This document shows positions 16,110 through 52,837 of a DNA stretch of 64,000 bases, piece by piece. The notes below the pieces were generated by a model. It saw nothing but the letters and a program-made list of their open reading frames with translations. It had not been told where the DNA came from and searched no databases. Source of the DNA: Pseudomonas sp. (GTDB lineage Bacteria > Pseudomonadota > Gammaproteobacteria > Pseudomonadales > Pseudomonadaceae); the NCBI GenBank assembly GCA_034519305.1, contig JAXHOM010000020.1:9163-73162 (forward strand), read 5' to 3'. Each line of letters opens with the position of its first letter. The stretch's first letter is position 1. Made by a program: the position numbers and the translations under genes.

Positions 16110-16236
16110 ACAGTAAAAAGCACGTTTCTGGTCGTTTCCCAGCGTCTCCCGAAAAAAGCCGATTTAGCGCGTTATCCTAAATTCAAGGGGTTAGGTGTTT
16201 CCCCTTGGTTCTGGGTATGGCCGGTCATGCCCTAAG

Positions 16237-16260
16237 AAACGGTACGCAAAACGGTACGCA
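16237..16260 (+). promoter_or_regulatory. Putative integrase arm-type sites (tandem AAACGGTACGCA x2)
   Basis: Same tandem 12-mer at 52567-52590 and, slightly degenerate, at ~15975-15996. Confidence 0.65.
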
Positions 16261-16263
16261 GAA

Positions 16264-30100: not shown

Positions 30101-33100
30101 TTTTCCGGGTGGTTCCTGTCGGCCAGGTGCAGGGTGATCGGCGTGCCGTCGGGCAGGCCGACGGCCGTGCCGTGAATGGCGAGGTCAGGCGAGGTGGTCT
30201 CGAAGCTGCTGGCCGTGTGCAGGGCATTGTCGACCGTGGTGATCGCCAATTGCCCCGGCGTGGCCTTGATGTCGAGCTGGGCGTGGGCCTCGACCGTCGA
30301 GGTGCCATCGGTCACCTTGAGGGTGATGTCGAGGTCGTCGGCGTGGAAGTTGGCGGCGGGCTTGAAGATAAAGTCGCCGTTGGGTTGCGGTGCGAAATAG
30401 CCGGCGCGTGGGTCGATATGAACCTCGGTGATACTGAGTGCATCACCATCCGGGTCGGCGGCGCCAACCAGTTGCAGCAATTGCGCCTTGGTGAAGGTGG
30501 TCTCGGTATTGACCGCGATGTCAGGCATTGCTGCCGGGTGCGAGCCATCTGCGGCAACGGTCAGCACGTCGTCAACGGCGGTCACCGCCAGCTTGGCGTG
30601 TGCGTCGGTGGAGGTGGTGCCGTCAGTGACGGCAATGGTCAGCGGCACCTGGTCGCCATGGAAGTCGGCGGCCGGGGTGAAGGTCCAGTCGCCGGTGGCG
30701 GCATCTTTGGAAAATGCGCCAAATTTCGGGTCGACCGTAACACTCCCCACGTGAAGGACGTTACCGGCATCGGCATCGGTCGCGCCAACCAGTTTAAGCA
30801 GGTCGGCCTCGGTGAAGGTTTTGGCGGTGTCTTCCAGGGTGGCGCCGAGGTCGGCGACATGGGTCGCATCGGCCGTGACCGTGGGCGCAGTGTTGGGCGG
30901 CGGGGTGATGTCGATCACCCCAGCCCCCGAAGTGGTGGCCGTGCCGTCGGTGACAGTAATGGTGAGCGGGAGGTTATCGCCGCTGACACCCTGCGCGGGG
31001 GTAAAGGTCCAGCTGCCGTCCGGGTTGTGGGCAAAGCTGCCGTACTGCGGGTCGATATGCACATCGGAGACCGACAACGAACCGCCACCGGGGTTGGTGG
31101 CGCCGAACAGGGACAGCAACTGGGCTTCGGTAAACGTCTGCGGCTGATCGTGTGCACCCGCACCCAAATCGACCACATTGTTGGCGACCTGCGGCCCCTG
31201 GCTGGTGCCGCGTATGTCGATCACGATGTCGTGGGTGGTGCCGTCGCTGAAGCGCACCGTGAAGGTGTCGTGGTCGGTCTGGCCGCTGGCCAGCGCCTGG
31301 CTGGCGGGCAATGACGGATCGAGCTGGAAGCGCCAGATGCCCTGGGCATTGACGGAGAGCTGCCCGAACTGGCCCTGGGTGGCAGTTTGCTCGATCACCT
31401 GCGGGGCAGCGCTGTCCACGTCGGTGGCGCGGACCAGCCCGGCTGCTTCCAGATTGGCACGGGCCAGATCGGCGACGTGCGAGCCCATGTCGATGACGGT
31501 GGCGGCATCGTCGGTGCCGGTGACCTGTAGCGTAATGGTCTGGGTCGTGGCCGCGCCGTGTTCGTCGGTGACCGTAGCGGTGAACGTTTCCGTTCGATGG
31601 TCATTGACGTTGAGGGCCTGAGTCGCAGGGCGGCTGTTGTCCAGGGTGTAGGTCCACTGCCCGGTGGCGGCGTCGATGGCGAGACTGCCGTAGGTGCCGG
31701 CAGTCTGCGCGACAGACCAGGTGAGGTGCGCGCCGGCGTCGACGTCGGTGGCGGCGAGTGTGCCGGTGGCGGTGGTGGTCGCGGCATCTTCGGTCACCGC
31801 ACCCGTGGCGCTGCCCGCCGTCGAGGTGACGGTCGGCGCGTCGTTGCTGCCGGTGATCGTGACGGTGACGGTGTGGGTAGTGCCGTCGGCGCTATGCACC
31901 TCAAAGGTATCGGTGATCTGCCTTCCGGCCGGGAGTGACTGGATGGTTGGGTTGTCGTTGTCTGCCGCATACGTCCAGCTGCCATTGGGCAAGATTGCAA
32001 ATGAGCCGAAGCCGGCACTGCTCTGGCCATGTGCGGCGGCGAAGGTGGCCTCGCCCTGATCGATATCGGTGACGGCCAGTTGCCCCATGCAGGTGAGCGA
32101 GTGATGCGTCTGCCCCTGCACGGTGCTCGTCAGGACACTGGTGTCTTCGATCACCCCGGATTGCGTGCCGGTTTCGGTGATGACCGCCCCGTCGTTGGTG
32201 CCGGTGACGTCGATGGTCACGGTTTGGGTGGCGGTGGCACCGTGTTCGTCGGTGACGGTGACCGTAAAGGTTTCGCTCCCCGGGTGTCCGCTGGTCAGGC
32301 CCTGGGTGGCGGCACGGCTGTTGTCGAGGGTGTAGGTCCACTGGCCGCTGGCGGCGTCGACGGCGAGACTGCCGTAGGTGCCGGCAGTCTGCGCGACAGA
32401 CCAGGTGAGGTGCGCGCCAGCGTCGACATCGCTGGCGGAGAGTGTGCCGGTGGCGGTCGTGGTGGCAGCGTCTTCGGTCACCGCGCCGGTCGCGCTGCTC
32501 AATGCGGAGGTGATGACCGGCGCATCGTCGGTCCCGGTGACGTTGACGGTGACGGTCTGGCTGACGCGCTCGCCGCTGTCAGTGGTGACTTCGACGGTGA
32601 AGGTTTCGGTGCGGGTCTGGCCGGCGGCCAGTTCATTGGTGGCAGCCTGGCTGTTGTCCAGCGTGTAGGTCCAGTGGCCCTGCGCGTCGACGGCGAAGCT
32701 GCCGTAATGGCCGGCGGTGTGCGCCTGGGCGGTGAACACCGGATGGTCGCCGATGTCGGCATCGGTGACGTGCATCTGGCCGCTGAGACTGGCGTGCGCA
32801 GCATCGTCTTCGGTGGTGCTGCCCAGAACAGGGACGCCAGCGCTGACGGTGGCCTGGTGTCCGGCGATGCTGACCGTCATCGGGTCCGTGGTCACGCCAC
32901 CCGTCACAGTGTGCAGGGCATGGTCGCCATCGGGCAGTTTGGGCACGCCCAGTTGCCAATGGCCCTGGGCGTCTGCCGTGGTGCTTCCGAGCAGGGTATT
33001 GCCTTCGTAAACGTCTACATGTCCGCCGGCGGTTGCCGTGCCGGACAGCACGGAAATGCCGGTGTTGGCGTTCACGCCGACCAGTTTGTTCAGGTAGATG

Positions 33101-36100
33101 TAATCACCGGGGCCGTTGGCGCGATCGTCGTCACAGACCTTGACCAGCTGGCCAACGGTGCCGTCTTCGAATATCACCAGGCCGCCATCGAAGTTGTTCC
33201 GAATGCTCGGTGCCAGCGGCGCGTAACGCGCCGGCCCGCCGTCGAGGTGTTGGCCAAACCACTGGTGTTGATCCAGATAAATGTAACCGGCCCCGGCAGC
33301 GGCGAGATTACCGGTGTTGTAGGCGGCATGGGTGACCGGCAGGTCGCCGTGGGCAATGCTGGCCAGCAGGTTGTGGCTGTCGCCCGGCAGAAATAGCCCG
33401 ACCATCCGGGTGCCGACCGGGACGCCCTGGTGCGCACTCGTGTACATGCTGAGATCGGTGGCGCCGGTGAAGTCGGTGATCTGGGCAACCTGGCGGATGT
33501 CGGCCGGCGCCGGGGGCGTGACCTGAATCAGCGGCGCATCGTGGGTGCCGGTGACCGTGATGGTGATGTCCGCGGGCCCGTTCGGGCCCTGGAGGGTGAA
33601 GGTTTCGGTGCGGGTCTCGCCTTCTTTCAAGCCCTGCACGGCATCCGCTTTATTGTTGAGGGTGTACACCCAGTGGCCCTGGTCGCGCAGGTCGAGGCTG
33701 CCGAAGTGCCCGGCCATGGTGTGGTCGCCCAGATGCAGGGTTCCGCCACTGGTCGAGGAGAGGTCGCCGGTGATGACCGTGGTGGCGGCATCTTCCTTGA
33801 CGCTACCGGAGAGATCGCCGGTGAGCGTCGAGCGGACGGTGACTTCCGCATGGGCGGTGGTGGTGGCGGTACCGTCGCTGACGGTGAGGGTGACTGGCAG
33901 GTGATCGCCATGGGCGGTGCCGGCCGGATGGAAAGTCCAGTCGCCGCTGGCCGCGCGGGTGAAGCTGCCATAGGCGGGATCAATGTGAACTGCGCTGATG
34001 GAGAGCGTGTCGTGATCGACGTCGGCCGCATGCACGAGGGAAAGCAGCTGCGTTTCGGTGAAGGTCTGGCTGGCACCGGCAAAGGCGGTGCCCAGGTTGG
34101 CGGCATGGGCCGTGTCGACCGCAGTGACGGTGGGCGCGTCGTTGGTGCCGGTGATGGTGACGGTGACGGTATGGGTGGTGCCGTCGGCGCTATGCACCTC
34201 GAAGGAATCGGTGATCTGCCTTCCGGCCGGGAGTGCCTGGATGGCTGGGTTGTCGTTGTCTGCCGCATACGTCCAGCTGCCGTTGGGCAAGATTGCAAAT
34301 GAGCCGAAGCCGGCACTGCTCTGGCCATGCGCGGCGGTGAAGGTGGCCTCGCCCTGATCGGCATCGGTGACGGCCAGTTGCCCCATGCAGGTGAGCGAGT
34401 GATGCGTCTGGCCCTGCACGGTGCTCGTCAGGACACTGGTGTCTTCGATCACCCCGGATTGCGTGCCGGTTTCGGTGATGACCGCCGCGTCGTTGGTGCC
34501 GGTGACGCCGATGGTCACGGTCTGGGTGGCGGTGGCGCCGTGTTCGTCGGTGACGGTGACTGTAAAGGTTTCGCTCCCCGGGTGTCCGCTGGTCAGGCCC
34601 TGGGTGGCGGCACGGCTGTTGTCGAGGGTGAAGGTCCACTGGCCGCTGGCGGCGTCGACGGCGAGATTGCCGTAGGTGCCGGTAGCCTGCGCGACGGACC
34701 AGGTGAGGTGCGCGCCGGCGTCGACATCGCTGGCGGAGAGCGTGCCGGTGGCGGTCGTGGTGGCGGCGTCTTCGGTCACCGCGCCGGTTGCGCTGGTAGT
34801 CGCCGAGATAATGACCGGCGTGTCGTTGACGCTGGCCACGTGGAGGGCTCCGCTCGCCTCGGCCGAGTCCACATGACCGTCGCTGACTTTGTAGCCAAAG
34901 GCAACGTCGCCGTTAAAGTTGGCGGCGGGCCGGAACACCAGATGCGAGATATCTGTCGCGTCGATCTGCTGGCCTGCCGTGACCGCCTGGCCGTTGAGCA
35001 GGAACTGCCCTTGTGTCGCCGCATCCGGCAGTTGGGTCAGAGTGACATGGTGCAGCGTATCGCTGGTGTCCACGTCATGGAAGCCGAAATCGGCAGTGCC
35101 GAGCGTGATGTCCTGGTCTTCGCTACCCTGCACGCTGAGTGCGCTGGCAACGGTCGGCACGTCATTGGTGCCGACAATGTGCACCGTGACGGTGTGAGTC
35201 GTACCGTCGACCGAATAGGCTGTGAATGTATCGGTGAGCGGTTCGCCCTCGCCTAGTGCCTGCACAGCCGGGTTATTGTTGTCGAGCCGATAGATCCATG
35301 CGCCTGAGGGTGCCAGGATAAATCCACCGTAACCGCTATCGCTGACACCATGAAATTCAGCTTTAAAGTGATTTTCACCCTGATCAGTATCAGTTACCTC
35401 GAGCTTGCCTGAAGCTTGGGAATAGGCTGATCCACGAGTCAATGTGTCTTCTTTAACCGGATTTCCGGGACTGCTTTCTGTAATCACAGCCGCATCATTG
35501 GTCCCCGCCAGGGTTACCGTAATGGTCTGCCGGGTACCGTCGGCCGTCATGACTTCGATGCTGTCGGTAGCCTGATGGCCGCTCTGGAGCGCCTGGACTA
35601 TAGGAGCGCTGTTGTCGGCGGTGTAGGTCCAGTGGCCCTGTGCGTCGATGCTGAAGCTGCCGTAACCATGGTCGCCGACAATGCCCTGCATGGCGATGAA
35701 GTGTTCCTGGTTGGCATCCGGGTCGGTCACAACGAGCTGACCCTCGGTGTGCAGCGTGGTGCCGGCGCCGACGTTGTCCTCGATGACATCTCCGGTGTGC
35801 GTGCCGCTGACTACCGCGACATCGTTGGCGCCCATGATGGTGACGGAAATCATCTTGGGCGTGCCGTCGACGCTGCCAACCATGACCGTGTCGGTCAGGG
35901 TTTTGCCGGCGATGAGGGCCTGGACATCGGGGTTGCTGTTGTCGAGCTGATAGGTCCAGTCGCCATTGGCGGCAAGGGTGAAATGGCCGTAGTGTGTAGC
36001 CTGATCGATCGGCTGAAAGGCGGATTCGCCGGCATTCGGGTCGGTGATGTCGAGGTGGTGGCTGATGGTGCTCGTCTGGTCTTCGTTGGCCATGGCGGCC

Positions 36101-38865
36101 GACGTACCGGCGAAGATGGCCGGGGCGTTGCTGCCCTTGAGTTGCAGGTCGATGGTGTGGGTGGTGCCATCGGCGGTGCGCACGGTGAAGTGCTCGTCGA
36201 CATGGGCGTTGGCGCCGAGGTTGGCGAGCGCGGGGTTGGCGGCGTCCGCCGAGTAGTGCCAGTGGCCGTCGGCCTGGATTTCGAGCACGCCGTAGGTGCC
36301 CGTGAGCAACTGGCCCTGGAAGTGGTTTTCGCCTTGGTCGAGGTCGATCACCGCCAGTTGGCCGTCGACACGCACGCGCCCGCCCTGGGCACTGGCGACG
36401 GAGCCGATGGCGTGGTCGATGCCGGCAACGACGGGAACATCGTTGGTGCCGGTAATGGTGATCTGCAACTGGGTGGTACCCGTGCCCCCGTGGGAGTCCG
36501 TGACCAGCACCGGCACGCTCAGGGTCAGTTTCTGACCTGCAGCCAGATAGTTGTAATGCGGGTCCGCGGGGTCGAAGCTGTAGCGGCCGTCGGGAAAGAG
36601 CGTCAAGCCTTCGAGTGGCTGGCCGCGACTGAAGGTGAGCGTGGCACCGTCGTCCGGATCGGTGGCGGTGAGCTGGCCGCTGACGGTGGCCCCGCCTTCG
36701 AGCACCTGGCGCGTTGGCACGACATTCAGGGTCGGCGCATCGTTGGTGCCGGTGATGGTGATCTCGATGGTACGCGCCGAAGTGGCGCCAGCGGCATCGA
36801 CGACCTCGACCGGGATGTTGACGATCTGTTTTTGACCGAAGGCGAGGTGGTTATAGGCCGGATCGCCCGGGTCGAAGGTATAGCTGCCGTCGGCATTGAG
36901 CGTGAAGCCGTGGACCGGGGCGGTGGCGCGGTAAGTGAGCGTGTCGGTGACATCGACATCCATAGCGGCGAGCCGGCCGTGCATCGGCGGGCTGCCCTCG
37001 AACGTGACCATAGGCGGCACGACCATCAGCGACGGCGCATCGTTGGTGCCGGTGACGACGATCTGCAGGGTTTCGCTGCCGCGCGCGCCGGCCTGGTCAG
37101 TGACGGTCACCGGGATATTGATGAACTGTTGGGCGCCGGGTGCCAGATGCTGGTAGGCAGCGTTGGACGGATCGAAGCTGTAGCTGCCATCGGCATGCAG
37201 GGTAAAGCCGGGCACTGTCTGTGGCGCGCCAAAGACCAGGATGTCGCCATTGTCCGGATCAGTCGCGACCAGCTTGCCGGTGAGCACGGCGGCGTCTTCG
37301 GTGGCGGTCAGCGACGTGACCTGCAGAGTGGGAGCATCGTTGGTGCCAGTCAGGGTGATCTGCAGGTTCTGGGTGCTTGAAGCGCCCAGGCTGTCGGTGA
37401 CCGTGACGGGAATGCTGATGAGCTTTTGCTCGCCTTCACGCAGATGATCATAGGTCGGGTGGGCCAGGTCGAAGGTGTAGCTGCCGTCGGGATGCAGCGT
37501 GAAGCCGTCGAGCGGCTGGCCGAGGCTGTAGGTCAGCGTATCGCCGTGATCGACGTCGGTGGCCGTGAGTTGGCCATGCAGCGGGGCGGCGCCTTCGCGG
37601 GTGGCCAGAGGCGCAGCGATGGCCATCACTGGCGCGTCGTTGCTGCCGGTGATGGTGATGCTGATGGCTTGCGTGGTGCCGTCCCGGGTGGCGATAACCA
37701 CCCGATCGGTGAGGGTGTCACCGGCCTTGAGCTCCTGCACGGCCGCTTGGCTGTTGTCGAGCTGGTACTGCCAGCTGCCATCGGCACTGAGGGAGAAAAA
37801 ACCGTGGCTGGCGGCGGTCTGCGTCATGCTCACGAATGCGGCTTCGCCGGTATCGACATCGGTCACCACGAGCTTGCCGGAGAGGGTGCTCTGCTGATCC
37901 TCGCCGATGGTTCCAGTACTGGCACCGCTGATCACTGCGCGGTCATTCTCGCCACGGATGGCGATCAGCAGCGGCACTGACTGCATGCGGCCGTCGGTAT
38001 CGACCACCGAGATCACGAAGTGCTCGCTGAGTGGCTGGCCCTGCCCAAGAGCCTGAACCTGCGCGGCGGCATTGTTCAGGCTATAGCGCCAGTGGCCGTC
38101 GGCATCCAGCTGCAACCGACCGTAGAGGCCGTCCGTGTGATCGGCCTGCCACTGAACGGCGCCATGCCCGCCAGATGCACTGAGCAGTCCACGGGCTTGC
38201 TGGCGGCCGTCTTCATTGACTTGGCCCAGGGTATCGCCGGATACGGCCAGAGGGGCGTTGCCTGACGCTGACTGCGGCAGCACATGGGGTTGTGGCTGAG
38301 ATGTCGGTGGGAGCTGAGTATGGGCTGCTGATTGCGCTTGACTGGGTAACTGCGACGGCGTGTGCGACTGCTCCTGCGGGGCCGAAGCCCCTGCGGAAAG
38401 TACCTTGAGGCCGACGGCGCCGGGCAGCTCGGTGAGCACGAAGTGGCCTTCGACATGGCTGGCCGACAGATCAGTGGGCGGCAGGCCGTCGGTATCGGCA
38501 CCGGTATAACCCATCCAGGCTGCCGCGCCTGCCATGGCGATTGGTTGCGCGGCAGGGACGGTACCGGCCAGCGATGGCGGAACGGGTGCCAGCTCTTCGG
38601 TCGGCAGCGCAATCGGCACAGCCTCTGCGGAAGGATCCGGTGGCGCGGGCTGCTCGGACGCCTGGCCCCGGCCTGCCGCAGCCTCCGGTTCGGTTGCCGG
38701 TGGCAGCTCGGGAGCTGGTTCGCTGACGCTCCAACCGATTTCACTGACCGGCTGGGAATCCTGCATCTGGCCCAGGCTCGTGTCGCGTGCTTTGAGCCGC
38801 GCCGCCTGCTCGGCTGGAGAGCCCTTGGCAGTGTTTGAGTCTGCTGGCGTGTGCTTCTTGTCCAT
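27177..38865 (-). CDS. Giant VCBS/cadherin-like repeat adhesin (~3900 codons), split by a frameshift near 29210
   Basis: Dozens of ITGTNDAP and G.W.Y.LDN repeats; ATG 38865 with GGAGG RBS; ORFs 29167-38913 and 27177-29165 join with a 1-nt shift. Confidence 0.85.
31826..32488. repeat. ~660-bp near-identical internal duplication in the adhesin (copy at ~34124-34786)
   Basis: Same sequence offset by 2298 bp, e.g. CGGGTGTCCGCTGGTCAGGCCCTGGG at 32281 and 34579. Confidence 0.85.
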
Positions 38866-38909
38866 GGCGGCCTCCCGGCAACTGGCTCGGCGCTCCTGCG
38901 CCGCTTGGA

Positions 38910-40255
38910 TCAACGTTCGTGAAAGGCAGTATCTGCCGTGAGGAAAATAGGCTTCAACAGATACTGAATCACTGATTTACGCCCGGTGACGATATCAGCC
39001 TCGCCTGTCATGCCTGCGATGATCCGACGTGAGTCGTTGCCTACGTAGGGGTGTTCCAGGCTGATCTGTACCTTGTAGAAGCTCGCGCCATTTTCCTTGA
39101 GCTTGAACGAGGTGGGCGAAACCCGCGAGACAGTCCCCGGCACCGAGCCAAAGCGGCTGTAGTCAAAGGAGTCAACTTTGACCACCGCATGCTGGCCTGG
39201 CTGAATGAAGCCGATATCGCGTGGCTGCACCATGACTTCCATGACCACATCCTGACCGGCCGGCACTATCTCGGCGACCACCCCGCCGGGGGCGATTACG
39301 GCGTTCTGCTTGGTTTGCGGCAGGTTCATCACCACCCCCGCGACAGGTGCCTTGATCTCGAATTGCGCGCCGCGCTGTGCCAGTGCGCGTTCCTCGGCCT
39401 GCAGCTCGCGCCACAGTTCGGTGGTCTTGCCCAGCTCGATGCTGATGTTCTGGGTGAACTCGGCATCCACGCTTTTGGTCTCCGCTTCCAGGGTAGTGAT
39501 CTGGTCCTGGGCAGAGGCCATGCGCGAGGCCAGCTCGGACTGCCGTTCCTGCACGGCAGTAACTTGCTGGCGTGCGTCGCTGAGCATCAGCTTGCTCACC
39601 AGCCCCTTGCGTGCGCCCTCTTCCAGACGGGCCAGGCGACTACTCGCCTCCGCCAGCTCCCTGGCCAGCAGCGCCTTGTCGCGCCGCATGCCGTCGATCT
39701 GGCGCTGCTGCTGGACAATCGCACTGCGCTTGGCATCGCCCAGAGAGCGGCGTTCATCCAGCTGAATGGCGTACGAGGCCCTGGCCTGCTGCACCATGTT
39801 GGGGAACTTGGCAAACGCTGCAAAATCCGGCTCGCGGTTTTCCAGCAGCGCGCCTAGGCGCTCGCGGTCGATCAGCGCTGAGGCCAGTTTGACTTCGTTC
39901 TGTGCCTTTTCCTTGTTCAGGTTGGTTGCCGCGAACTCGACCAGTGCCTGGCCGGCTTCGACGGTCTGGCCTTCCTGCACCAGTAGCCGGACGATGGTGC
40001 CGCCTTCTTCGACCTGCAGTGATTGCACGCCAGCGCCGGGCTGGACTTCGCCGTGGGCTTTGGCCAACTCGTCGACCTGCGCCAGGCTTGCCCAGACGAT
40101 AAACACCAGCACCAGCCCAGCTACGGCCAGCATCGTCCGGCGCAGCAGCAGGGTCTGGCGCGAATCGTCGAGGAGGTTGTCGATGCGCGCGCTGAAGCTC
40201 TGATCGGCGGCGATTACGTCGATGATTTCTAGAGATTCTTTCTTGTTCATGGTGG

Positions 40256-40259
<4 letters not shown>
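38910..40259 (-). CDS. HlyD-family type I secretion periplasmic adaptor
   Basis: N-terminal TM, coiled coil, IKAPVAG, DIGFI.PGQ, GMT..ADIVTG..SVIQYLLKP. Confidence 0.93.
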
Positions 40260-42432
<2,173 letters not shown>

Positions 42433-42436
<4 letters not shown>

Positions 42437-44040
42437 GCGCCCACCTCGCCAGTTTCGATCACCAACTGCCGGGTGCAGGAGGCCATCAGGGCTTCCTTAT
42501 GCGACACCAGCAGTACCGTTGTATTGCCCTGCAATGACTTGAGCACCTCGGCCAAGCGCCTGATGCCGTCAAGGTCGAGGCCGCTGGCGGCATGATCGAG
42601 CAGCAGGATGCGCGGTTTGCGCAATAACCCGCGAATCAGTGCGATGCGCTGGTAGATGCCCTCGTCCAGATGTTCCGTGGCCCCTAGCCCGACCTCGGTG
42701 AGCACCCCATGGCGCAAACGGTCCAGGTAGGGCTGCAGGCCCAGTAGTTCGCAGTAGTGCTTCACCTCTGCGTTGCAGCGCGGGTCAAACAGGGTCAGGT
42801 TGTTGAGGATGGAACCGGGCACCAGTGCCGGATGACGGGTCACCAGCGCGACGCTGCGGGCATAGTCGGCGCGCGCAAGGCGCTCGACAGGCTGACCGTC
42901 GAGCAGCACCTGGATGCGCTCATCCAAGGTAATCCCGGCAACCACCGACAGCAGATGAGAGGCATCTGTCGCGCTGGCCGAATGCACATGAACGACTTCG
43001 CCGGCAGCGATGCGAGCCGGTCCGGAAAACCAGCCTGGCGCCGTTAGAGTCAGCTCGCCTGCGCCAATCGCCGCGCCGGCACCCGGCGCAGGAGTTATGT
43101 CCACCTGGAAATCACTGCTGAACAGATCATCGACCTTGGCTTGGGCGGCGCCGGTGCGTGCCAGCTGTGCCCAGTAACCGAGGCTCGCCATGACAGGCCC
43201 GACCGCCCGGCCAACCAGCATGGTGCAAGCTGCCAGACCGCCCGTGCTGAGCCGGCCATTCACCACCTCAACCGCCCCCCAGGCCACCACCAGCACGGTC
43301 GCCAGCTGGCTGATTGCCTGGGCATTTTCCCGCACCCAGCCCTGCAGGGTTTCTAGGCTGGCGCTGCGCTGCATGTAGGCAGCGTTCAGCCGCCGGTAGA
43401 TGGCTGCCACTCGCCCCTCGGCCCCGGCGGACTTGATGTCGGCCAACCCCGTCAGGCTGCTCCAGGCCAGAGTCCTGCGCTGCCAGTCACTTTCTTCGAC
43501 CTTAACTGCAAGGGCGGCAATGATCCGGCTCCAGCGCGCTGCCAGCAGAACCCCGCAGAGAAACAGTGCTAGGGGAACCATGACAAGCCAGCCGCCGATA
43601 TAGGCAATCAGGGCCAGATACAGCAGCGCGAAGGGCGTTTCGTATAGAGCGGCACCGGCTTGGCCAGACCAGAAGTCCCGCACCTGCCCGATGGAACGCA
43701 ATGCATCGCTGATGGCGGGTGCACCGCGCTTCTCAACCTTCTGAACATCCGCGTGCAGCAGACTCTCCAGTGCTTTCAGGTAGGTCTGCGCCTCGTAGCG
43801 GGCGGCAAAGCGCGCAAACAGCAGCACCCGCCCGTAACGCAGAAATGCCTCCATGACAATCGCCAGCCCTACCCCCAACACCAGGACAAGTGCCGTGCCA
43901 TAGGACTGACTGGGCAGGATGCGGTCGTAGATGTGCAGCAGCGCCAGCGGCAACGCCAGCGCCAGCACATGGATCACCGCGGTGACGAGCAACAGGTCGC
44001 CACGAAGTGCGGGCCTGGCAAACAGCGTGGATTTCGGCAT
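42433..44040 (-). CDS. Second type I secretion ABC transporter subunit with degenerate NBD
   Basis: LALPLALLHIYDRILP TMD start; QRIALIRGLLRKPRILLLD; Walker A absent. Confidence 0.85.
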
Positions 44041-44342: not shown

Positions 44343-45305
44343 CTATGAGTGCGGCTTCGGTAGGCTCTTTCCGACATGCCGTTGCTTCATTTCCGTATAC
44401 CAATGGCCTCGGGTTGCGGCTGGAAACACAATCTCTCCCAGAATGTGTCCTTGACCATATCTTGGTTGCTTTTGCGGATGACGAATACTTGCCACATCAA
44501 CGCCCGCTGCGGATTGGACATGGCATTTCATGCCTGTGCCCAACCGACCGTCACCGTACACACTGATTGACGAGGTGGATTGGTGCCCCATGATGTAAGC
44601 CATGCTTTCAGGGCTTTCCCCGGATGCTTTCAGAATTGATCCCATCTGATGCCTAAAGCTTTTCAGCGTCGGATGCTTTTTCCTCTTAGGCCACAGGCTT
44701 CGGCATTCTTTGCGCAAGCAGTCTCTGATCGCGGTGATGGTGCGTGGGCACTCGGCCATCCACTGTGCGGCCCATTCCACAAGCTTCAGCGTTCTTGGCT
44801 TATTGATTACCAAGGTGCGGTCCGCGCCGCGGTGCAGTTCGGCAGATTTTTTGCCGCCAATAATGTGCACTAGGTTGCCTGTGATGGTGATCGTGCGCAT
44901 CTCGCAGGGGCGTACGCCCAGGCAATAAGCCAGCACTAGTGATGCTGCCTCGTCGAGATTGCCCTTTGCGCGCAGGTGCTTGTGCAGCAATTTGAAGTCC
45001 TCGAAGGAGACTTTCCTTACCTGTTTTCGCTTGGGCTTTTTCGCTATCAGGCTGTTAGGAGCGGTGACCGGGTTGACCAGCGCTCTGATAGCAGCAGCGT
45101 CTTCAGTGCTGCCCCGAGCGAGCTGGTCGTTCATCAAGGCATTCTTGAGGGTGCTGAATGCATTTGGCCGATAGTCCTGAGCACAGGCAAGCAAAGCCGC
45201 GCAGATCTGCGCTGAAGTTGGATTGTCCTCACCGCAGTGATTCCGATAGAAGTTTTGTGCTCGGGTTTGGTACCGCTGCAAGGTCGTTGGCTGCATGGCT
45301 GTCAT
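44343..45305 (-). CDS. Compact tyrosine recombinase-superfamily protein (no obvious arm-binding domain)
   Basis: GVRPCE (R), GGKK (K), LKSFRH (KxxR), MGHQSTSSISVY (H...Y). Confidence 0.85.
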   Translation of the reverse strand: MTAMQPTTLQRYQTRAQNFYRNHCGEDNPTSAQICAALLACAQDYRPNAFSTLKNALMNDQLARGSTEDAAAIRALVNPVTAPNSLIAKKPKRKQVRKVSFEDFKLLHKHLRAKGNLDEAASLVLAYCLGVRPCEMRTITITGNLVHIIGGKKSAELHRGADRTLVINKPRTLKLVEWAAQWMAECPRTITAIRDCLRKECRSLWPKRKKHPTLKSFRHQMGSILKASGESPESMAYIMGHQSTSSISVYGDGRLGTGMKCHVQSAAGVDVASIRHPQKQPRYGQGHILGEIVFPAATRGHWYTEMKQRHVGKSLPKPHS

Positions 45306-45434
45306 CTCTCATCTTGTTGTTTTGATGACAAAGCTAAGCCGCTTCGCGAAAGGCGTTGTGTCAGTTCGGCCTACACTGAAATGCACTACGCCTTCGCTTC
45401 GTTTTTTCTCGTTCCGTCCGAACTGCCCCAACGC

Positions 45435-45461
45435 CCTCTTACTCGCGCCGCGAGTAAGAGG
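45435..45461. repeat. Perfect 13-1-13 palindrome
   Basis: CCTCTTACTCGCG C CGCGAGTAAGAGG. Confidence 0.95.
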
Positions 45462-45827
45462 TGCGCGCTCTCACTCACGCGACACGCTTCATCTGTATTC
45501 AGCGTGCGCCGTGAGCAAAAGCGCGCGCAAGCCTTTTGTCATCAAAATCAAAACGCAGCCAGCGCCTGTGGCGCTGAAGGGACGAGCTCGGCAGCACGAA
45601 GCCCGCAAGCGGAGATGCATGGACAATCGATGCATTTAAAAATGCTTGCTATCGGTCGGTTTTTTGGTTGTGTATTTTGAATATAAATATTTGATTCGTA
45701 TGGTTTTTATATCGAAATATAACCAATAAAAGCAGTGCCGGTTTGGGCACTCTTTGCGTCGGAGGTGGCGGTGATTGTGCCACTTCCGGCTGCTTTTGGT
45801 GCCTGATCAGGCAGCGCTAATGCCGCA

Positions 45828-46074
45828 TGCGGCACAGTAAGTGTGTCGCAAACCGCAGCTGCGACATGCGGGGTGTATCGCAGCTAGCTGCTTGGGACAT
45901 GGTCAGGGTATCGCAGCGCGTGTTGGTGACAGACTGAATGTGCTGCACCAGTGTCCTGCGACACTCCCAGGGTGTCGTAACCGAGTCTGCTACAAGCGGG
46001 GTGTATCGCGGCTAGCGCATGCGACACAAGATTTGTATCGCCGCACGAGCTTGCGACACACCTAGGGTTGCCAC
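45828..46074. repeat. Array of 8 dyads TGCGACA-N9-TRTCGCA with ~32-bp period and variable spacers
   Basis: Left arms start at 45828, 45860, 45893, 45925, 45957, 45988, 46020 and 46052. Confidence 0.9.
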
Positions 46075-46208
46075 TGCGATATTAGGCTATGTCTTCGGGG
46101 CAAACAGCTTTCGTGCGGATGGAGCTGTCTGTAGCTGTTGCCAATATGCAATTGCACTCATTTGCTCGCCAGAGCACACATGAGAAGCCGTTACGACAGG
46201 CTGCATCC

Positions 46209-47823
46209 GGCCGATTCTGTTGAAAAAGTAGGTTCAGCGGCAGCCGGCCGGTCGGATGTGCCTGCTGTCGAAGTGGCTGGAGGCCACTTCAAGCTGCCTT
46301 TCGGCGTTTCACTGAGCTTCCTTGCCCAGGTCTGAGGGTTAGTTCGAGGGTTTCTGCTCGCCGCAGGCGCACCTATCCCGTGATCGGTGGCCCGTGAGGC
46401 AGTAGCTTGGCCATACGTCTCAGGTTTTGCACAGTCGCGGCCAAGGTGAATTCGTCAATCGCACCCGTCAGTCCACGCAGTCGTAAACGGTCGAGTTTCA
46501 TGATCCGTTTGAGGTGGGCGAACAGCATCTCCACCTTCTTCCGTTCGCAACGAGAGACGAGGTATTCCGGTGTCTTGGCGATGCGTCGAGCCACGTCACG
46601 GGCCGCTTCATGGATGCTCCGAGCGATCTTGCGGAATGCGGTATTGGGGCAGCACTTCGCTTTCAGCGGACAGGTGGCGCAGTCGGTTTGGCTGGAGCGG
46701 TAGATGATGGTATTGGCCTTGGTCACACGCGATCTTTTCTGGGTGAAGGCACGCCATTCACTGCGTAGCGGTTTGCCGACTGGGCAGCGGTATTCATTGG
46801 TCTCTGGATTCCAGTGGAAGTCGTTACTGGAAAGACTGTCGTCCTTGCGCTCGGTCTTATCCCACACCGGCACGTGCGGCTCGATGTTCTTTTCTTCGAC
46901 CATCCAGGCCAGCATCGGGGCAGTGCCATAGGCGGTATCGCCGATGAGGCGTTCCGGCGTGAGATCGAACTGCGCTTCGACACGCTCAACCATCGTCCTG
47001 GTCGAATCGACTTCGGCGGTACGGTGCGCCGGGGTCGCCTCCACATCCATGATCACGCCGTGCTCAGTGTCGATCAGGTAGTTCGTGGAGTAGGCAAAGA
47101 ATGCGGGGCCGCCTGGCGCTGCTGTCCAACGAGACAGCGGATCGGTGAGTGAAATCTTCTTGGGGAGGGTTTCAGCCAACGTCTCTTCATCAAGGGCTTC
47201 GAGGTACTCGCGTACGGCGCGGCTGCTCAGCGCAGGATCACGCCAATCGACTTCATCTCCAGCCACTCCACGTTGCCGGCTGGCATCAGCCTTGATGATG
47301 CTGGCGTCGACGGCGAAACCTTCCCCCTTTACCAGGCCGGCCGCCATGCAGCGTCGCAGCACCTCATTGAACAACCAGCGGAACAGACCGCTGTCACGGA
47401 AGCGGCCGTGGCGATTCTTCGAGAAGGTCGAGTGATTGGGTACTTCGTCTTCCAGACCCAGCCGGCAGAACCAGCGATAGGCCAGATTTAAATGCACCTC
47501 TTCGCATAGTCGTCGCTCGGAGCGGATGCCGTAGCAGTAGCCAACGACCAGCATGCGCACCATCAACTCAGGGTCGATCGAGGGGCGTCCAATGGGGCTG
47601 TAGAAGTCGGCCAGATGTGCACGCAGATCGCTGAGATCCAGGCACTGGTCGATGCTGCGCAAGAGGTGTTGGGGCGGAACGTGGTCTTCCAGATTGAACG
47701 AGTAAAACAGCCGCTGCTGCCCACTCGGTAGCTGTCCCATCATGCTGTTCGCCCCCACGCTCACTGACAGAGCAATTTTGCCAACGGCATGGGGAGGTCG
47801 CTACTTTTTCAACAGAATCGGCC
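46209..47823 (-). mobile_element. IS1182-family insertion sequence
   Basis: 23-bp perfect terminal IRs GGCCGATTCTGTTGAAAAAGTAG / CTACTTTTTCAACAGAATCGGCC around a transposase. Confidence 0.92.
46373..47743 (-). CDS. IS1182-family DDE transposase
   Basis: GRPSIDPELM, RSERRLC, AVDAS, GDTAYG, KKVEMLFAHLK. Confidence 0.93.
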   Translation of the reverse strand: MMGQLPSGQQRLFYSFNLEDHVPPQHLLRSIDQCLDLSDLRAHLADFYSPIGRPSIDPELMVRMLVVGYCYGIRSERRLCEEVHLNLAYRWFCRLGLEDEVPNHSTFSKNRHGRFRDSGLFRWLFNEVLRRCMAAGLVKGEGFAVDASIIKADASRQRGVAGDEVDWRDPALSSRAVREYLEALDEETLAETLPKKISLTDPLSRWTAAPGGPAFFAYSTNYLIDTEHGVIMDVEATPAHRTAEVDSTRTMVERVEAQFDLTPERLIGDTAYGTAPMLAWMVEEKNIEPHVPVWDKTERKDDSLSSNDFHWNPETNEYRCPVGKPLRSEWRAFTQKRSRVTKANTIIYRSSQTDCATCPLKAKCCPNTAFRKIARSIHEAARDVARRIAKTPEYLVSRCERKKVEMLFAHLKRIMKLDRLRLRGLTGAIDEFTLAATVQNLRRMAKLLPHGPPITG

Positions 47824-47896: not shown

Positions 47897-48193
47897 CTAC
47901 CTTTTTCCAGCATTCGCCTTCATGCTCAAACTGAAGGCTACGCAGGCCGCCGAGGCACTGATCAACATCAACCAGAGCAGTGACCCGAAGCTCGGGCCAT
48001 CGCGCAGGATGCAGATTAGGTAGACAACTCCAAGCAGGCTGAAGCCGGCAGGACGCAGCCAGCGCCTGGGGGGTATCTGGCAGAAGCGTTGCGCCATTAA
48101 ATCCTTCCAGTGACGCGGCATAGCCAGTGCCAAACAGGCGAATCCGGCATAGCCTACGAATCCGGCCAGTAATAACTCCAGCAAGCTATTCAT
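47897..48193 (-). CDS. DUF3325-type small membrane protein (iron-uptake cluster)
   Basis: YAGFACLALAM.RH motif; follows a PepSY-TM gene. Confidence 0.75.
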   Translation of the reverse strand: MNSLLELLLAGFVGYAGFACLALAMPRHWKDLMAQRFCQIPPRRWLRPAGFSLLGVVYLICILRDGPSFGSLLWLMLISASAACVAFSLSMKANAGKR

Positions 48194-49423
48194 GGCGTAA
48201 TACCGCTGCCTGCTTACGATCCCTGCGCTGAGGCTCACGTGCGGGTTGGCCCAAGCGGCGAGCGACCCAAACCGCCAATACGGCAGTCAGTATCAAGGCG
48301 ATGTCCACTCCTGCGACTGCCCATTGGCGATCCGTCAGGCTTCGCAGAATATGATCGCCCGTGCTCCAAGCATTAAGCAGCGGGCATGCTAGGGATAAAG
48401 CAGCAATTCCCCATACCTGTTCACGCCATGCTTTAGCCGGCCGCAACCAGGCATGTGCAAATGTCGCCAGCCAAGCCAAGTAGAACACCAGGATTTCCAC
48501 CTCAGCCCGTTCCATGCCGGCGGCACTAAAGCCAAGCGGTAGCAAACGGTTGGCAACCAGCATGGCCAGTGTTGCCAGGACAATGCCGCTGACGCTGCCG
48601 ATGGTCAGACCTTCAACAATTCGCACGCCAGGTAAACCTTTCTTGGCATGGCTGGCGCGGCGTGCGCCAAGCCAGAACAGAAAGCCAGTAGCAATCATCA
48701 CGCAGCCCGCTACGCCGGCAATAAAGTAGAGCCAACGCAAAGGCCAATGCTCGAACTGGATGAAATGCAGACCAGATATAAATCGTTGCACGGTCATTAC
48801 CGGGCCAGCAGCAAAGCGCTTCAGCACTTCACCGTTACTCGCATCGAAGTACAGGGTGTCCAGGTGCATAGTGATGTCGTTGGCATAAGCGCGCCGCACC
48901 TCGACATAGCTGTTGGCATCACCCGGATGCCAGACCCTGATGAAGAAGGGGTTACCGCCCTGCCACTCGTGTTCAGCCTGGGCCAACATCGCGTCTATTG
49001 AGCCCATTGTTCCAGGTTGTTCAGCTTTGTCCCTACGGTACTGTCCGTAAGCCTCTGTTTCGAACTCGACGCGTGCCTGCGCATGCTTTCCGTAGGTCGC
49101 TAAGTGAGCTTGCGGAAAATAGATGTTCATAAAAATGATCAGCCCCGAGAGGGCGATCATAAAGTGAAAAGGAAGCGCGACGACTCCGCTCAGGTTATGC
49201 AGATCCAGGCTGCTGCGTTGCAGTGTCTTGCGCGGTCTGAAGGTGAAGAAATCAGCAAAAATCTTCTTGTGAATCACCACCCCAGAAACCAGCAAAACCA
49301 GCATGCCCATGCCTGCCAAACCGACGAGCCAATAGCCAATATCGAGCCACTTGAGGTGCAGCATAAAGTGAAACGGAAAGATAAAGCCGGTGCCAGCTTC
49401 ACTGCCTTGGTCGTCAATCAAAG
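48186..49423 (-). pseudogene. 5'-truncated PepSY-associated TM helix protein
   Basis: FHFMLH, LVSGVVIH, DLHNLSGV, LHF motifs; N-terminus replaced at the IS66 end. Confidence 0.8.
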
Positions 49424-49564
49424 GTAAGCGTCCGGCCAACACACCTACCTGACAGCGTCGTCTAAGGCGATGGTGTCCACCTGATTTTAAGTGGACACCT
49501 TTTTTAGCCTTTTTAAGAGGACGCTCATGCAACAAGAACGCCGTTCCTATTCCAAGTCCTTCAA
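49424..49564 (+). mobile_element. IS66-family left-end remnant
   Basis: Begins GTAAGCGTCC; GGTGTCCAC/GTGGACACC stem; tnpA start MQQERRSYSKSF at 49527, then truncated. Confidence 0.8.
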
Positions 49565-50060
49565 CGGCCTGCACCATGTAGCGGTTGACGGTGCGCACAT
49601 TAACCTTCAGCGCATCGGCAATTTGTGCGTACGTCAGACCTTCGAGTTGTGACAGAAGGAATGCTTTACGCACCTTGGCGGGTAAAGTGTTGAGCACAGC
49701 ATCGACTTCGTTCAAGGCTTCAAGAATCAGCGCATGATCTTCAAGGCTTGGCGTGAATTGCTCAGGCAGCTGCGCCAGTGCTTCCAGGTAGGCGCGCTCC
49801 AGACTCTGCCGGCGAAAATGATTGAACATCAGCCGTTTAGCCACAGTGACCAAATAGGCACGGGGCTCAGCCAATTGCAGCTCTGTGTTCGGATGCTGGC
49901 TGACCAGGATGCGCATAAAGGTATCCTGCGCCAGATCAGCCGCATCGCAGCGATTTTCCAAGCGTTTACGCAGCCATCCGTAAAGCCAGGAATGGTGATC
50001 ACTGTAAAGGGCGTGCAGTGCTCTCTGGGGGTGCGTAGCTGCTGTACTGAATGGGCGCAC
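49565..50060 (-). CDS. FecI-like ECF sigma factor, 3' end fused to the IS66 remnant
   Basis: LYSDHHSWL.GWLR, DAADLAQDTF, AFLLSQLEGLTY.QIA. Confidence 0.85.
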
Positions 50061-50408: not shown

Positions 50409-50807
50409 TCAGATGATGCAGGCTACGTTCTCGATGCTGGTGCGCTTCCGCTGACCTGGCCCGAGTAGCAGATATGCTGTGTTCAACGTGCGGAACAGAA
50501 AGTCATCCGCGAAATGATGCAGCGGAGACGTTCGCACGAAGTCGCCCACATCCCATCGCCTCTCGCTGTCGTAGACGACCGTATCTGCGTAGATGATTGC
50601 CGGTTGACGCTGAGATGCCACCAGGTTCTGGAGTATTTCCGTGGGCGCGTCCAGGTCTAGCCAGAGCCAGTTGCGAATCAGGCAGAATGATCCATGAGGA
50701 AAGCGCTGTCTGGCGTAGCTGAGTGCTTCTGCGTCGGACATCGAGCTGCCGGACATAGGCAGACCTATGCCCGGAAAAAGCTGAGCCCAGGGGCTTAGGT
50801 CGGTCAT
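50409..50807 (-). CDS. Conserved Pseudomonas island protein (DUF6957-like)
   Basis: FCLIRNWLWLD, IIYADTVVYDS..RW..GDFVRTS, FRTLNT.YLLLG pattern. Confidence 0.6.
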   Translation of the reverse strand: MTDLSPWAQLFPGIGLPMSGSSMSDAEALSYARQRFPHGSFCLIRNWLWLDLDAPTEILQNLVASQRQPAIIYADTVVYDSERRWDVGDFVRTSPLHHFADDFLFRTLNTAYLLLGPGQRKRTSIENVACII

Positions 50808-50808
50808 A

Positions 50809-51216
50809 TCATTTAGCCCAGCCGGGGTACGTGTAAGGGAAGTCGGGCTCCAGTCGCGCGAGTTGGAGTGCGCTTGTGAGGGCCTCTGCATCGGCGAAAC
50901 CCGCACGACTAGAACCTTTTCCGATTGTCGTGACGAGATGCTCCATGATCAGCTCCAGTCTCTCGGTGGCGGTCCTAATACTAAGCAGCTCCAGGTTGGC
51001 AATTACGTTGCACAGCAGATCTATCGCCTGCGGTAATTGATCAACCGAGACAGTGCCGAAGCTTCCCCCAAAAGCTGTCGTAAATTCCCGTTCCATCCTT
51101 GCGACCCGCGTGATTTGCCCGTTGGGGGCTCCGTGCATGCTCTGCCAGAGCGTTATGGCGTTCAGGATTTCTTGGGGCGTGGGAGTTAAGAACTCTTTTG
51201 GACGTTTGGTCGTCAT
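50809..51216 (-). CDS. Hypothetical protein
   Basis: 135-aa ORF tightly packed in an operon-like arrangement. Confidence 0.6.
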   Translation of the reverse strand: MTTKRPKEFLTPTPQEILNAITLWQSMHGAPNGQITRVARMEREFTTAFGGSFGTVSVDQLPQAIDLLCNVIANLELLSIRTATERLELIMEHLVTTIGKGSSRAGFADAEALTSALQLARLEPDFPYTYPGWAK

Positions 51217-51227
51217 GATGGCTGCCC

Positions 51228-51692
51228 TTAGTTAGAGCGCCGGTTGGCGGTTTTTTTGAAGCGAGGAGAGCATCTTCCTGAGAGTGTGGACCATCTGATC
51301 TTGTTTCTTGAACAGCTGTAGTGATCTTCGCAGATCAGCATTTTTTCCAGCATCTGTGCGGTGTCTTGATCGGCCATGCTCCATGCAGAGCGATACTTGT
51401 TCAGGCACTCAATGGCTGCGCGTCTGCTATCCGGGCAAAGTTGATCCAGGATGTGGTCAATGAAGTCTGGGGTTAGTCGTAGCGGCAAGTAGTAGAGCGA
51501 GCCCCCAGCTTCGTGTGCCTCTTCAACACGGAGTTCGCCTCCAAATTCTGTGATGGCAAGCTCTGCCAGGGACGTTTGTGCACCGAACAACTGAAGCAGC
51601 GATTTCAGTTCCACGCGGAGTTGCAGCGATTCCATGTTCATCTTGAGCTGAAGCATGCCGCCTGCAGGTGTGGTTTGTGTCGTGGTGTTCAT
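51228..51692 (-). CDS. Hypothetical protein
   Basis: 154-aa ORF with GGAG RBS; first gene of a three-gene run. Confidence 0.6.
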   Translation of the reverse strand: MNTTTQTTPAGGMLQLKMNMESLQLRVELKSLLQLFGAQTSLAELAITEFGGELRVEEAHEAGGSLYYLPLRLTPDFIDHILDQLCPDSRRAAIECLNKYRSAWSMADQDTAQMLEKMLICEDHYSCSRNKIRWSTLSGRCSPRFKKTANRRSN

Positions 51693-51834: not shown

Positions 51835-52302
51835 ATGAGCTACGAAAAGGTGTTGGGTGAGGTGGTCAGAGACGTGAGGCTTAGGGCTGGCCTCACGCAT
51901 GAAGCTTGTGCTGAAGTCGTCAACGCTACCCACTTACGTCAGATCGAGAAGGGGCTGGCCGCAGTCAGAATTGACACGCTGGTAGCCCTATGTGGAGTGC
52001 TGGGCGTTTCACCGAGCCAATTGCTTTTGGTTGCTGAGGCGCGCTCGGCTGGTCAGGCGGTTGAAGAGCACCTTGGCGCGAACAACAAGCAAATTCTGTT
52101 GCTTCTGGAGGCTGGGCGGTTCGAGCCTGTCACGTCAAAAGATGCAGCGAGAGGAATTCGTGGCCAGAAGGCTGATGCGACCCGCGATGAGACTCGTCGA
52201 TTGCAGGCCGAAGGCCTATCTAAAGCTGATATCGCACGTCAGTTAGGCGTCACGGTGAGGACCGTTGAGCGTTATTGGGTCAAGCCAGTCACTCAGAAGT
52301 GA
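51835..52302 (+). CDS. Dual-HTH DNA-binding protein (N-terminal XRE, C-terminal resolvase/Hin-like HTH)
   Basis: VRDVRLRAGLTHE...LRQIEKG...LCGVLGVSPSQL; C-terminal LQAEGLSKADIARQLGVTVRTVERYW. Confidence 0.8.
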   Translation: MSYEKVLGEVVRDVRLRAGLTHEACAEVVNATHLRQIEKGLAAVRIDTLVALCGVLGVSPSQLLLVAEARSAGQAVEEHLGANNKQILLLLEAGRFEPVTSKDAARGIRGQKADATRDETRRLQAEGLSKADIARQLGVTVRTVERYWVKPVTQK

Positions 52303-52335: not shown

Positions 52336-52435
52336 TGCGACATCGTCCGTGTGTTGCGGCGTGAGCGTGCGACAGCTCAAGTGAGTCGCAGATGTGGTAT
52401 GGCAATACTCTCTGTGTGTCGCGCTTCCTGCAATA
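52336..52435. repeat. Second array of the TGCGACA-N9-TGTCGC dyad (3 dyads plus a half-site)
   Basis: Left arms at 52336, 52368 and 52401; spacers tcgtccgtg, gctcaagtg, ctctctgtg. Confidence 0.8.
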
Positions 52436-52657
52436 CGCAGACCCTTTCTCCGGCCTGAACGCCTAATACCGTACCCGTTTGGGAGGTAGCACAAACCCAT
52501 TGGAGTGCTGCCTGGGTATCAATCTGCGAGCTAAAGCGCTCGTTGCGTTCCGTCGCAGCAAAAATGAAACGGTACGCAAAACGGTACGCAAATTTTTTAT
52601 CGAGCCCATAAACGACAAAAGGCCAGCACGATGGCTGACCTAAGTCGTTGTTTCATA

Positions 52658-52734
52658 TGGTGGGCCCACACGGACTCGAACCGTGGACCAAAGGATTATG
52701 AGTCCTCTGCTCTAACCAACTGAGCTACAGGCCC
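52658..52734 (-). tRNA. ileX: tRNA-Ile2 (anticodon CAT; may be auto-annotated as Met)
   Basis: 77-nt cloverleaf GGGCCTGTAGCTCAG...CTCATAA...GGTTCGAGTCC...CCA downstream of rpoD. Confidence 0.93.
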
Positions 52735-52837
52735 CAGAAAGCGGGGCGATTATAACGAGGCCCTGGCGCTTGCGCCAACGGAACGCGGTGCGCAGGGGAA
52801 TTATCTGGTGGTGGCGGGTGTTTCCAGTGGCGTAATG

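Follow-up and report, generated by a model that had tools for sequence, protein, structure and literature searches.

A phased lattice of inverted sites beside a MobK-related tyrosine recombinase is a candidate helper-type replication origin on a Pseudomonas island

We analysed a 64,000-nucleotide stretch of Pseudomonas DNA (hereafter the window) and found that an array upstream of a tyrosine-recombinase gene is a genuine, conserved set of inverted DNA sites placed three helical turns apart. Taken together with a second lattice and an AT-rich tract beside it, the array could quite plausibly be a helper-type replication origin on a Rep-less mobilizable island. The initiator predicted to bind the lattice in trans is a helicase resembling N15 RepA, encoded by helper prophage-like elements.

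Geometry and conservation of the lattice

The main lattice (positions 45828–46074; like the other lattices, the AT-rich tract and the cassette described below, it is assigned to no strand) consists of eight dyads of the form TGCGA(C/T)A-N9-T(G/A)TCGCA with a period of 31–33 bp, the last being a half unit. The dyads start at 45828, 45860, 45893, 45925, 45957, 45988, 46020 and 46052, giving start-to-start gaps of 32, 33, 32, 32, 31, 32 and 32 in that order. The eight consecutive inverted dyads of a preliminary description of this DNA were re-found with the unit sequences as first listed, and its measurements of the internal spacers (constantly 9 nt and ending in G, true in all eight units), of the linkers (8–10 nt) and of the 31–33-bp dyad period were reproduced. 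Its start of the array also stands; its end at 46081, with eight full units, does not. The lattice ends at 46074, and unit 8 is really a half unit, because five of the seven positions of its right arm are mismatched. The motif goes beyond what shuffled DNA yields: with up to 5 mismatches tolerated per unit, we scored a chain of 8 units here; 300 base-shuffles of the region gave chains no longer than 3, and the longest chains in other parts of the window were of 2–3. The source genome (2.78 Mb, 85% complete) holds 167 dyads, and its only phased pairs are those of the main array and of a cluster at 52336/52368. This cluster, close to the island's tRNA end, is a partial copy of the lattice (52336–52423), its three dyads being separated by gaps of 32 and then 33.

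Among relatives of the recombinase, arrays have 3–9 units, and their phasing is conserved. Across 51 arrays (these, like all counts of relatives given here, include kin and are not independent), 274 of 277 gaps are of 30–33 bp (248) or 22–23 bp (26), and the other three, all from one lineage, are of 90 bp and off-phase; gap filling permitted only phased steps, the raw gaps being 22, 31–33, 53–54, 61–64 and 90. The 22–23-bp gaps represent the loss of about one helical turn, and they abolish the second "spacer", which is then −1 or 0 nt long. At one locus (L150) the array has been enlarged through tandem duplication. The G that ends each spacer is an eighth arm base, conserved in 89% of 328 units, whereas the mirror position is conserved in just 57%.

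From the array toward the recombinase gene, the order is main lattice, second lattice, AT-rich tract and cassette. The second lattice (45737–45835) comprises five GCC-N6-GGC-like dyads with periods of 21, 21, 22 and 21, and is also found at period 21 in a dusA element (L198). The AT-rich tract (45650–45735), a candidate unwinding or bending region, agrees with the earlier remark that the array lies close to AT-rich DNA. It contains a conserved GGTTAT motif (45719–45724, minus strand), which we found in 49 of the 51 arrays using a fixed window, and a match at 45684–45696 to the IHF consensus; that consensus, counted with no shuffle control, is exact in 15 of 51 arrays and has at most one mismatch in 39. 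The preliminary description had overlooked the second lattice, the inverted-repeat-bounded cassette and the three-dyad partial copy.

The island, its recombinase and the adjoining cassette

The lattice lies on a 36.6-kb island that extends from a tRNA-Met(CAT) gene, its integration site (52658–52734, minus strand), to a duplicated 3' part of that tRNA near 16065. Both att copies are on the minus strand and have approximate limits: the right copy (52578–52703) consists of the tRNA 3' part and ~80 nt, and the left copy (15985–16110) of the duplicated tRNA 3' part and downstream sequence. The left att adjoins the island's own integrase-like gene, a 511-aa ORF (16195–17730, plus strand) with a weak Phage_int_M match below the cut-off. 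Since the island has this ORF, the gene at 44343–45305 is a second tyrosine recombinase; given that separate integrase-like gene and the att duplication, we rejected an island-integrase role for it. The tRNA-Met gene is flanked on its two sides by an imperfect inverted repeat of 17 nt (52545–52561 and 52770–52786).

Relatives' islands, which are integrated at tRNA-Thr, tRNA-Met or tRNA-Ser, have the backbone order Xre, F5, P22_AR_N gene, DUF6957, array, cassette and recombinase. The window has a 155-aa Xre + HTH_7 regulator (51835–52302, plus strand), a conserved hypothetical gene of family F5 (51228–51692, minus strand), a 135-aa ORF (50809–51216, minus strand) at the slot of the antirepressor-like P22_AR_N gene of relatives, and a DUF6957 gene (50409–50906, minus strand); an IS transposase gene (DUF772 + DDE; 46373–47764, minus strand) is inserted between these backbone genes and the array. 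The tRNA was the sole match in an Rfam search and DUF6957 the sole match in an Atlas search, and we found no description of DUF6957 in the literature. The 51835 protein, suggested earlier for binding assays, is unlikely to be the lattice binder: the array occurs without it, and a close homolog is present in just 2 of 10 array genomes. As a candidate binder it was also rejected on the finding that extra dyads adjoin only 2 of 5 distinct close homologs.

Among the cargo are a two-component system and a type I secretion system that comes with a giant cadherin/Ig-repeat protein. In the secretion locus (27177–44040, minus strand), the cadherin/Ig-repeat protein has 3248 aa and a 662-aa ORF lies 2 bp past its stop codon; the two are possibly one split adhesin gene. 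At 48186–50060 (minus strand), the N-terminal part of an ECF sigma factor is fused in frame to a PepSY_TM domain, which probably marks a deletion junction in the cargo.

The gene at 44343–45305 (minus strand) encodes a 320-aa tyrosine-recombinase-fold protein (YR) that is related to MobK and has an N-terminal helical domain. Its catalytic residues R132, K152 (or K153), R218, H241 and Y250 are assigned with R132, K152, R218, H241 and Y250 invariant in 38 homologs, and K215 occupies the H/Y position. The predicted structure (pLDDT 82) is XerA/Cre-like, aligned over most of its length, and residues 6–74 are modelled as a helical core-binding-like domain. YR is 27% identical to MobK of pIGRK over 154 aa (E 1e-11; HHalign probability 97), a profile of the YR family gives 52.9 bits for MobK and no more than 11.7 for any of five integrases, and the family groups with MobK (support 91/92) in a 17-row tree that has long outgroup branches and leaves out XerC/D. 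On these sequence comparisons YR is probably a relaxase; it could be a resolvase, since its model has a core-binding-like domain that MobK lacks. The earlier assignment as a tyrosine recombinase holds for the fold; a MobK-like relaxase, and not an integrase, is the probable identity.

The YR family is found in 51 of 401 Pseudomonadaceae genomes. YR matches 65 plasmid records, many of them 2.7–3.7-kb enterobacterial plasmids, and its best plasmid homolog (38% identity over 281 aa) is on a plasmid of 3,249 bp that encodes a replication initiator of its own. A phage origin of YR was rejected, a search of 50,697 phage records having given no match. Near-identical distant homologs (~38%; L076–L081) form a clade that lacks both cassette and lattice and is found in many genomes of genus g17 as well as on one large plasmid. 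Other islands (L029–L034, e.g. L030:5298-10900) have a distant YR immediately after two large integrase genes, and L030, L032 and L034 sit at tmRNA; L029–L032 have the cassette, and none of L029–L034 has the lattice.

Between the YR gene and the AT-rich tract lies a conserved 228-bp cassette (45320–45547) with internal hairpins, whose ends form a perfect 13-bp inverted repeat. It contains a 13-1-13 palindrome (45435–45461) with a TACT-N9-AGTA core, a candidate nick or core site; this core persists in distant YR homologs, including on a small 3.2-kb plasmid. We counted these features at non-duplicate YR loci with at least 850 nt of upstream sequence, shorter and duplicate loci being left out. 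Among 61 loci with at least 53% YR identity, the array is present at 51, the palindrome at 59 and both cassette ends at 59. Among 35 more distant loci, the array is present at none, the palindrome at 18 and both cassette ends at 19. Cassette identity at seven loci is 74–96% where that of coding DNA is 56–83%. Because the palindrome and the cassette ends stay with YR where the array is absent, and because the cassette is better conserved than coding DNA, the cassette rather than the array is the likely target of YR, and we regard it as a candidate oriT. For the preliminary description's proposal to look for comparable arrays upstream of homologs, the outcome is positive for close relatives (51 of 61) and negative for distant ones (0 of 35). 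Assembled contigs from RNA runs cover the cassette in 4 of 4 cases and parts of the array in 3 of 4, and are mute on expression and processing.

Lattices and helicases in relaxase-bearing elements

A two-dyad pattern matched 10 of 401 family genomes, and its reversed control matched none. Two of the ten matches, in G255 and G381, are away from a YR gene. In G255 (L197:9248-10150), a 10-unit lattice, a GCC lattice and an AT tract precede a different inverted-repeat cassette; there is no adjoining YR or relaxase gene, a distant YR is 27 kb off, and the first genes of the island are two large integrase genes. At one end of a dusA-integrated element in G381, the same dyad recurs with gaps of 32, 33, 43, 41 and 41; its linkers contain GGTTAT, a 21-bp GCC lattice accompanies it, and the whole lies upstream of genes for a mobC-like protein and a PF03432 relaxase. 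In G993, too, the same dyad, the GCC lattice and GGTTAT precede a mobC-like gene and a gene for a PF03432 relaxase. The geometry, the conservation and the presence of the three motifs in helicase-bearing dusA elements are observed directly.

The same dyad, or a degenerate form, is found near relatives of the G381 relaxase in G993, G985, G808 and G1066. Other relatives of this relaxase have a TGCGA-based 21-bp lattice or unrelated 31–32-bp palindromes, of TGTTCT type in G290 and of GTGATATATCAC type in G898. An oriT-like core of MOBP type is present at 19 of 20 MOBP loci and at none of the 51 YR-array loci, so the lattice is the only part that MOBP and YR loci have in common. The lattice is 300–800 bp upstream of the relaxase gene in all located cases except L197. 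Blastn searches of plasmids with the array, the cassette and three other lattices gave nothing meaningful, short motifs being poor seeds; viral contigs scanned for exact patterns yielded no locus in one scan and 2 in another, both of these being known YR elements; and a class-wide zero-mismatch pattern scan matched 0 of 401, a scan so insensitive that the source genome itself went unmatched. A YR relative with 55% identity (L025:8850-9420) has another lattice at the same position, built from CGTACA...TGACGG words within a 189-bp higher-order repeat; this lattice had no plasmid match by blastn.

The candidate helper elements encode a 760–860-aa PF02399 helicase, related to RepA of phiHAP-1, PY54, VP882 and N15 (24–29% identity), and a separate primase-like gene. 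The G993 element also has portal, terminase, capsid and tail genes. Prophage-like elements with a relaxase gene are integrated at dusA in G993 and G985, and similar ones occur in G290. Head and tail genes are found together with mobC, a MOBP relaxase, the helicase and a phased lattice at L215/L216/L228 (G993:C1:2602000-2647000), L217/L218/L234 and L220/L229. Such dusA-type elements, with virion genes and a relaxase, are apparent phage-IME hybrids. In G381 (L213/L214; G381:C1:1742000-1788000), large cargo genes that look BREX-like by eye take the place of the G993 virion genes; the element retains the helicase, the primase-like gene, the lattice and the relaxase.

The helicase is rare, occurring in 9 of 400 genus genomes. 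It is present in 6 of 12 relaxase genomes, which are exactly the six with 31–32-bp lattices, and is absent from three with the 21-bp type (G1018, G871 and G059, their lattices identified by eye) and from three with no lattice seen. Among viral records, 8 of 13 have it, and the other five are 26–55% complete. In a prospective check, two of three elements newly reached through the helicase have a 31–32-bp lattice before the relaxase gene; the third, in G1161, encodes a 1116-aa N15-like RepA and has no lattice within 40 kb. Helicases that are ~25% identical pair with wholly different lattice words. The five helicases that go with type-A lattices have a C-terminal motif in common, even where local identity is 42%, whereas this motif is different in five helicases with the 21-bp type; the exception is G1075, with a type-A-like C-terminal motif alongside a 21-bp-type lattice. 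In the helpers, the relaxase and mobC diverge in step with the helicase, so this correlation cannot single out the helicase. A fold search with the helicase C-terminus gave no match at E ≤ 0.001. Neither the source genome (85% complete) nor the island has a helicase match, and among 19 array-bearing YR genome handles there are two matches, one to a distant homolog. A PF02399 family search of five genomes gave no match, and neither did its controls.

From sequence we infer a scheme of binding, replication and nicking, and the identity of the helper. The island integrase would excise the island at the tRNA att sites; the helper helicase would be loaded onto the two lattices (32-bp and 21-bp), with every site on the same face of the DNA; the AT/IHF tract would open and the circle would be amplified. 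The MobK-like YR would then nick the adjacent cassette, probably at the palindrome at 45435–45461, and guide the DNA to a conjugation pore that a different element provides. A fuller version, which we put forward as a doubtful though possible account, is that Rep-less Pseudomonadaceae islands copy the origin of dusA prophage-IME hybrids and are amplified by the N15-type RepA helicase, likely derepress the helper via a P22-Ant-like gene, and exit through a third element's pore using a MOB_M relaxase with a core-binding domain, each helicase variant reading its own two- or three-turn palindrome lattice.

Competing readings and known systems

The array is very probably a protein lattice on duplex DNA, because its spacers are positional, its arms do not covary, its second spacer is collapsible and no Nop gene accompanies it; the variable 9-mers are likely mere spacers. 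Among the models of the preliminary description, a phased protein-binding lattice of origin or oriT type gained support from the phasing, the lack of arm covariation and the helicase-bearing helper elements. In 201 distinct units the arms pair as often as independent columns would predict, and the variable arm pair 6/18 shows no covariation (p=0.74), with 36 C-A and 51 T-G combinations among 197, mismatches that break pairing on either strand. These data weigh against the earlier TIGR-like model, taken here to mean that transcripts of the array would be processed to ~32-nt dual-spacer guides of YR or another protein, a reading that we consider very improbable. Two alternating short repeats with 9-nt spacers are indeed present, both repeats begin with TG and end with CA (though inverted symmetry entails that), and spacer positions 9/15 pair above expectation (76 observed and 52 expected of 201). 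However, the array has no CCA box, no Rfam match and no sigma-70-like promoter that we could find, 26 of the 277 gaps leave a second spacer of −1 or 0 nt, and 28 joined spacer words (17–19-mers) match the genome no better than shuffles. The absence of a Nop-domain (Tas) gene, remarked on earlier, was borne out by failure to find PF01798 in the source genome (85% complete), in a search whose control was positive in 4 of 14 genomes. Spacer turnover between relatives would have favoured guides or crossover sites; instead, spacers are inherited by position, with core identity of 0.52 at the same position and 0.33 at other positions, and the window and L017 have 62 of 72 spacer bases in common where their YRs are 61% identical. 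Positional spacers and growth via tandem duplication also agree with the earlier statement that this is not a CRISPR array. That the dyads are binding or crossover sites of YR, whether as tandem core sites that differ in their overlaps or as sites where a relaxase loads, is improbable. The unit resembles a tyrosine-recombinase core site in size, the array-to-YR distance is fixed in 51 loci, and YR has a modelled Cre/Xer-like two-domain fold. Yet the array is lacking at 45 of 96 YR loci (10 of 61 close and all 35 distant ones) and is found without YR, the same word standing beside an unrelated HUH relaxase, and the feature that tracks YR is a different one, the 45435–45461 palindrome. Near-identical arrays accompany YRs only 61% identical, spacer shuffling was not seen, growth at L150 is by tandem duplication, and units abut or overlap at gaps of 22–23, with no room for 13-bp arms.

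If proteins bind the lattice, the question is to what end. As features of an origin, the phased sites are present, and a cognate initiator in cis is found in the dusA-type elements but not in the source genome. Set against an origin are the 21-bp lattices at the relaxase in G1018, G871 and G059 where no helicase is matched, the mixed pairing in G1075, the N15-like RepA of G1161 with no lattice in 40 kb, the co-occurrence of helper and YR array in just 2 of 19 handles, the off-phase 90-bp gap of one lineage (3 of 277), and the 41–43-bp gaps, rather than a uniform 32, in helper lattices with the same word. A less likely alternative is that a non-helicase protein of helper or host binds the lattice, making it a transfer-accessory or partition (parS/centromere-like) platform that would bend or wrap DNA by oriT or stabilise the excised circle, in the way that IncC parS mimics serve SGI1. 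The position 300–800 bp upstream of the relaxase gene suits this alternative, as do L197, where the lattice precedes an oriT-like cassette with no relaxase adjacent, and the lattice-bearing elements without a helicase; there are precedents in those parts of PMC10954446 and PMC12421886 that bear on such platforms. However, the lattice word varies among elements that keep one oriT-like core, blastn (weak for 7-bp motifs) gave no conjugative plasmid with these repeats, and the layout of lattice plus AT tract and the link to a rare origin-binding helicase suit an origin better. The helper elements encode TerS, TerL, portal, capsid and tail, and island relatives have an antirepressor-like P22_AR_N gene and an Xre repressor, as would fit a pac-like packaging-initiation platform for helper TerS on an island that is a phage satellite. 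We think this hardly likely: no head or tail genes were seen by eye among the listed G381 ORF starts (three proteins scanned), and the lattice is distant from terminase genes and adjoins the AT tract and oriT.

The candidate origin, as we prefer to read the lattice, has known parts. MobK is a demonstrated relaxase with its oriT just upstream, as set out in the relevant sections of PMC8152469, and our YR likewise has an inverted-repeat-rich region directly upstream. MOB_M relaxases are the commonest chromosomal relaxases in six species, and 96% of their genes lie near an integrase, according to the survey portion of bioRxiv 10.64898/2026.01.13.699239; the YR island similarly has a separate integrase. 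YR has the R-K-R-H-Y catalytic fold of the MOB_M modules (MobK/pIGRK, MpsA-MpsB/SGI1, TcpM/pCW3). Unlike YR, which has an N-terminal core-binding domain in the same chain, MobK, TcpM and MpsA are without one. The TACT-N9-AGTA palindrome was not seen by eye in the pIGRK upstream region, and the sections of these reports that describe MobK and MOB_M modules mention no phased lattice. SGI1, in the parts of PMC10954446 and PMC6414798 that deal with it, is a helper-dependent island with a YR-like relaxase and copies of the IncC parS, and so resembles the present island in bearing copies of a helper's protein-binding site. SGI1 differs, by the same accounts, in having two 22-bp sites and its own rep operon, whereas here there are 3–9 phased dyads, a second lattice, an AT tract, no island initiator that we found, and matching elements that are prophage-like.

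The candidate binder is homologous to the RepA helicase region of the N15, PY54, phiHAP-1 and VP882 replicons at 24–29% identity. Helper proteins differ from N15-type RepA in their length (~760–860 aa), in the separate primase-like gene and in belonging to integrating elements with mobC and a relaxase; the likeness is one of protein, N15 origin structure lying outside the comparison. TIGR-Tas arrays, as characterized in the array-defining passages of PMC12045711, have two alternating short repeats, ~9-nt variable sequence and 5–15 units, and our array shares the alternation and the ~9-nt variable spacing. Those passages also specify 8–12-nt repeats, UG and CCA boxes and two fixed-length spacers. 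Here the arms are 7–8 nt, mutually inverted and end in ACA/GCA, the unit is 32 nt, the second spacer is −1 to 10 nt, the spacers are vertically inherited, and there is neither a CCA box nor a Nop gene. PIMEs, defined by alpA, a replicase and trbJ/trbL in the defining part of bioRxiv 10.64898/2026.01.12.698999, are also integrated, helper-mobilised islands of Pseudomonadota with large cargo; the present island is not a PIME by that definition, none of alpA, replicase or trbJ/trbL being recognised among the scanned backbone genes.

In a literature that was mostly open-access, we found no description of this lattice, nor of a lattice-helicase series in relaxase-bearing prophage-like elements. The MOB_M-like module, the phased origin-like lattice and the mimicry of a helper, the last as in the pertinent part of the SGI1 report (PMC6414798), are each known; their combination appears new. 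The published MOB_M profile and oriT lists may already contain these elements. The analysis also points out prophage-like elements in which virion genes occur together with a relaxase and an N15-type initiator, a mix of which the literature searches gave no account, and the sets of helicase and lattice, with at least four lattice words, could yield orthogonal conditional replicons. If the relaxase assignment is true, a family annotated "site-specific integrase" would be reassigned to probable relaxases with a precise candidate oriT. If the lattice is an origin, it would name the step, so far missing, by which a common class of cargo islands replicates, and would be a case of origin mimicry, beyond the mimicry of helper sites so far described for oriT and parS.
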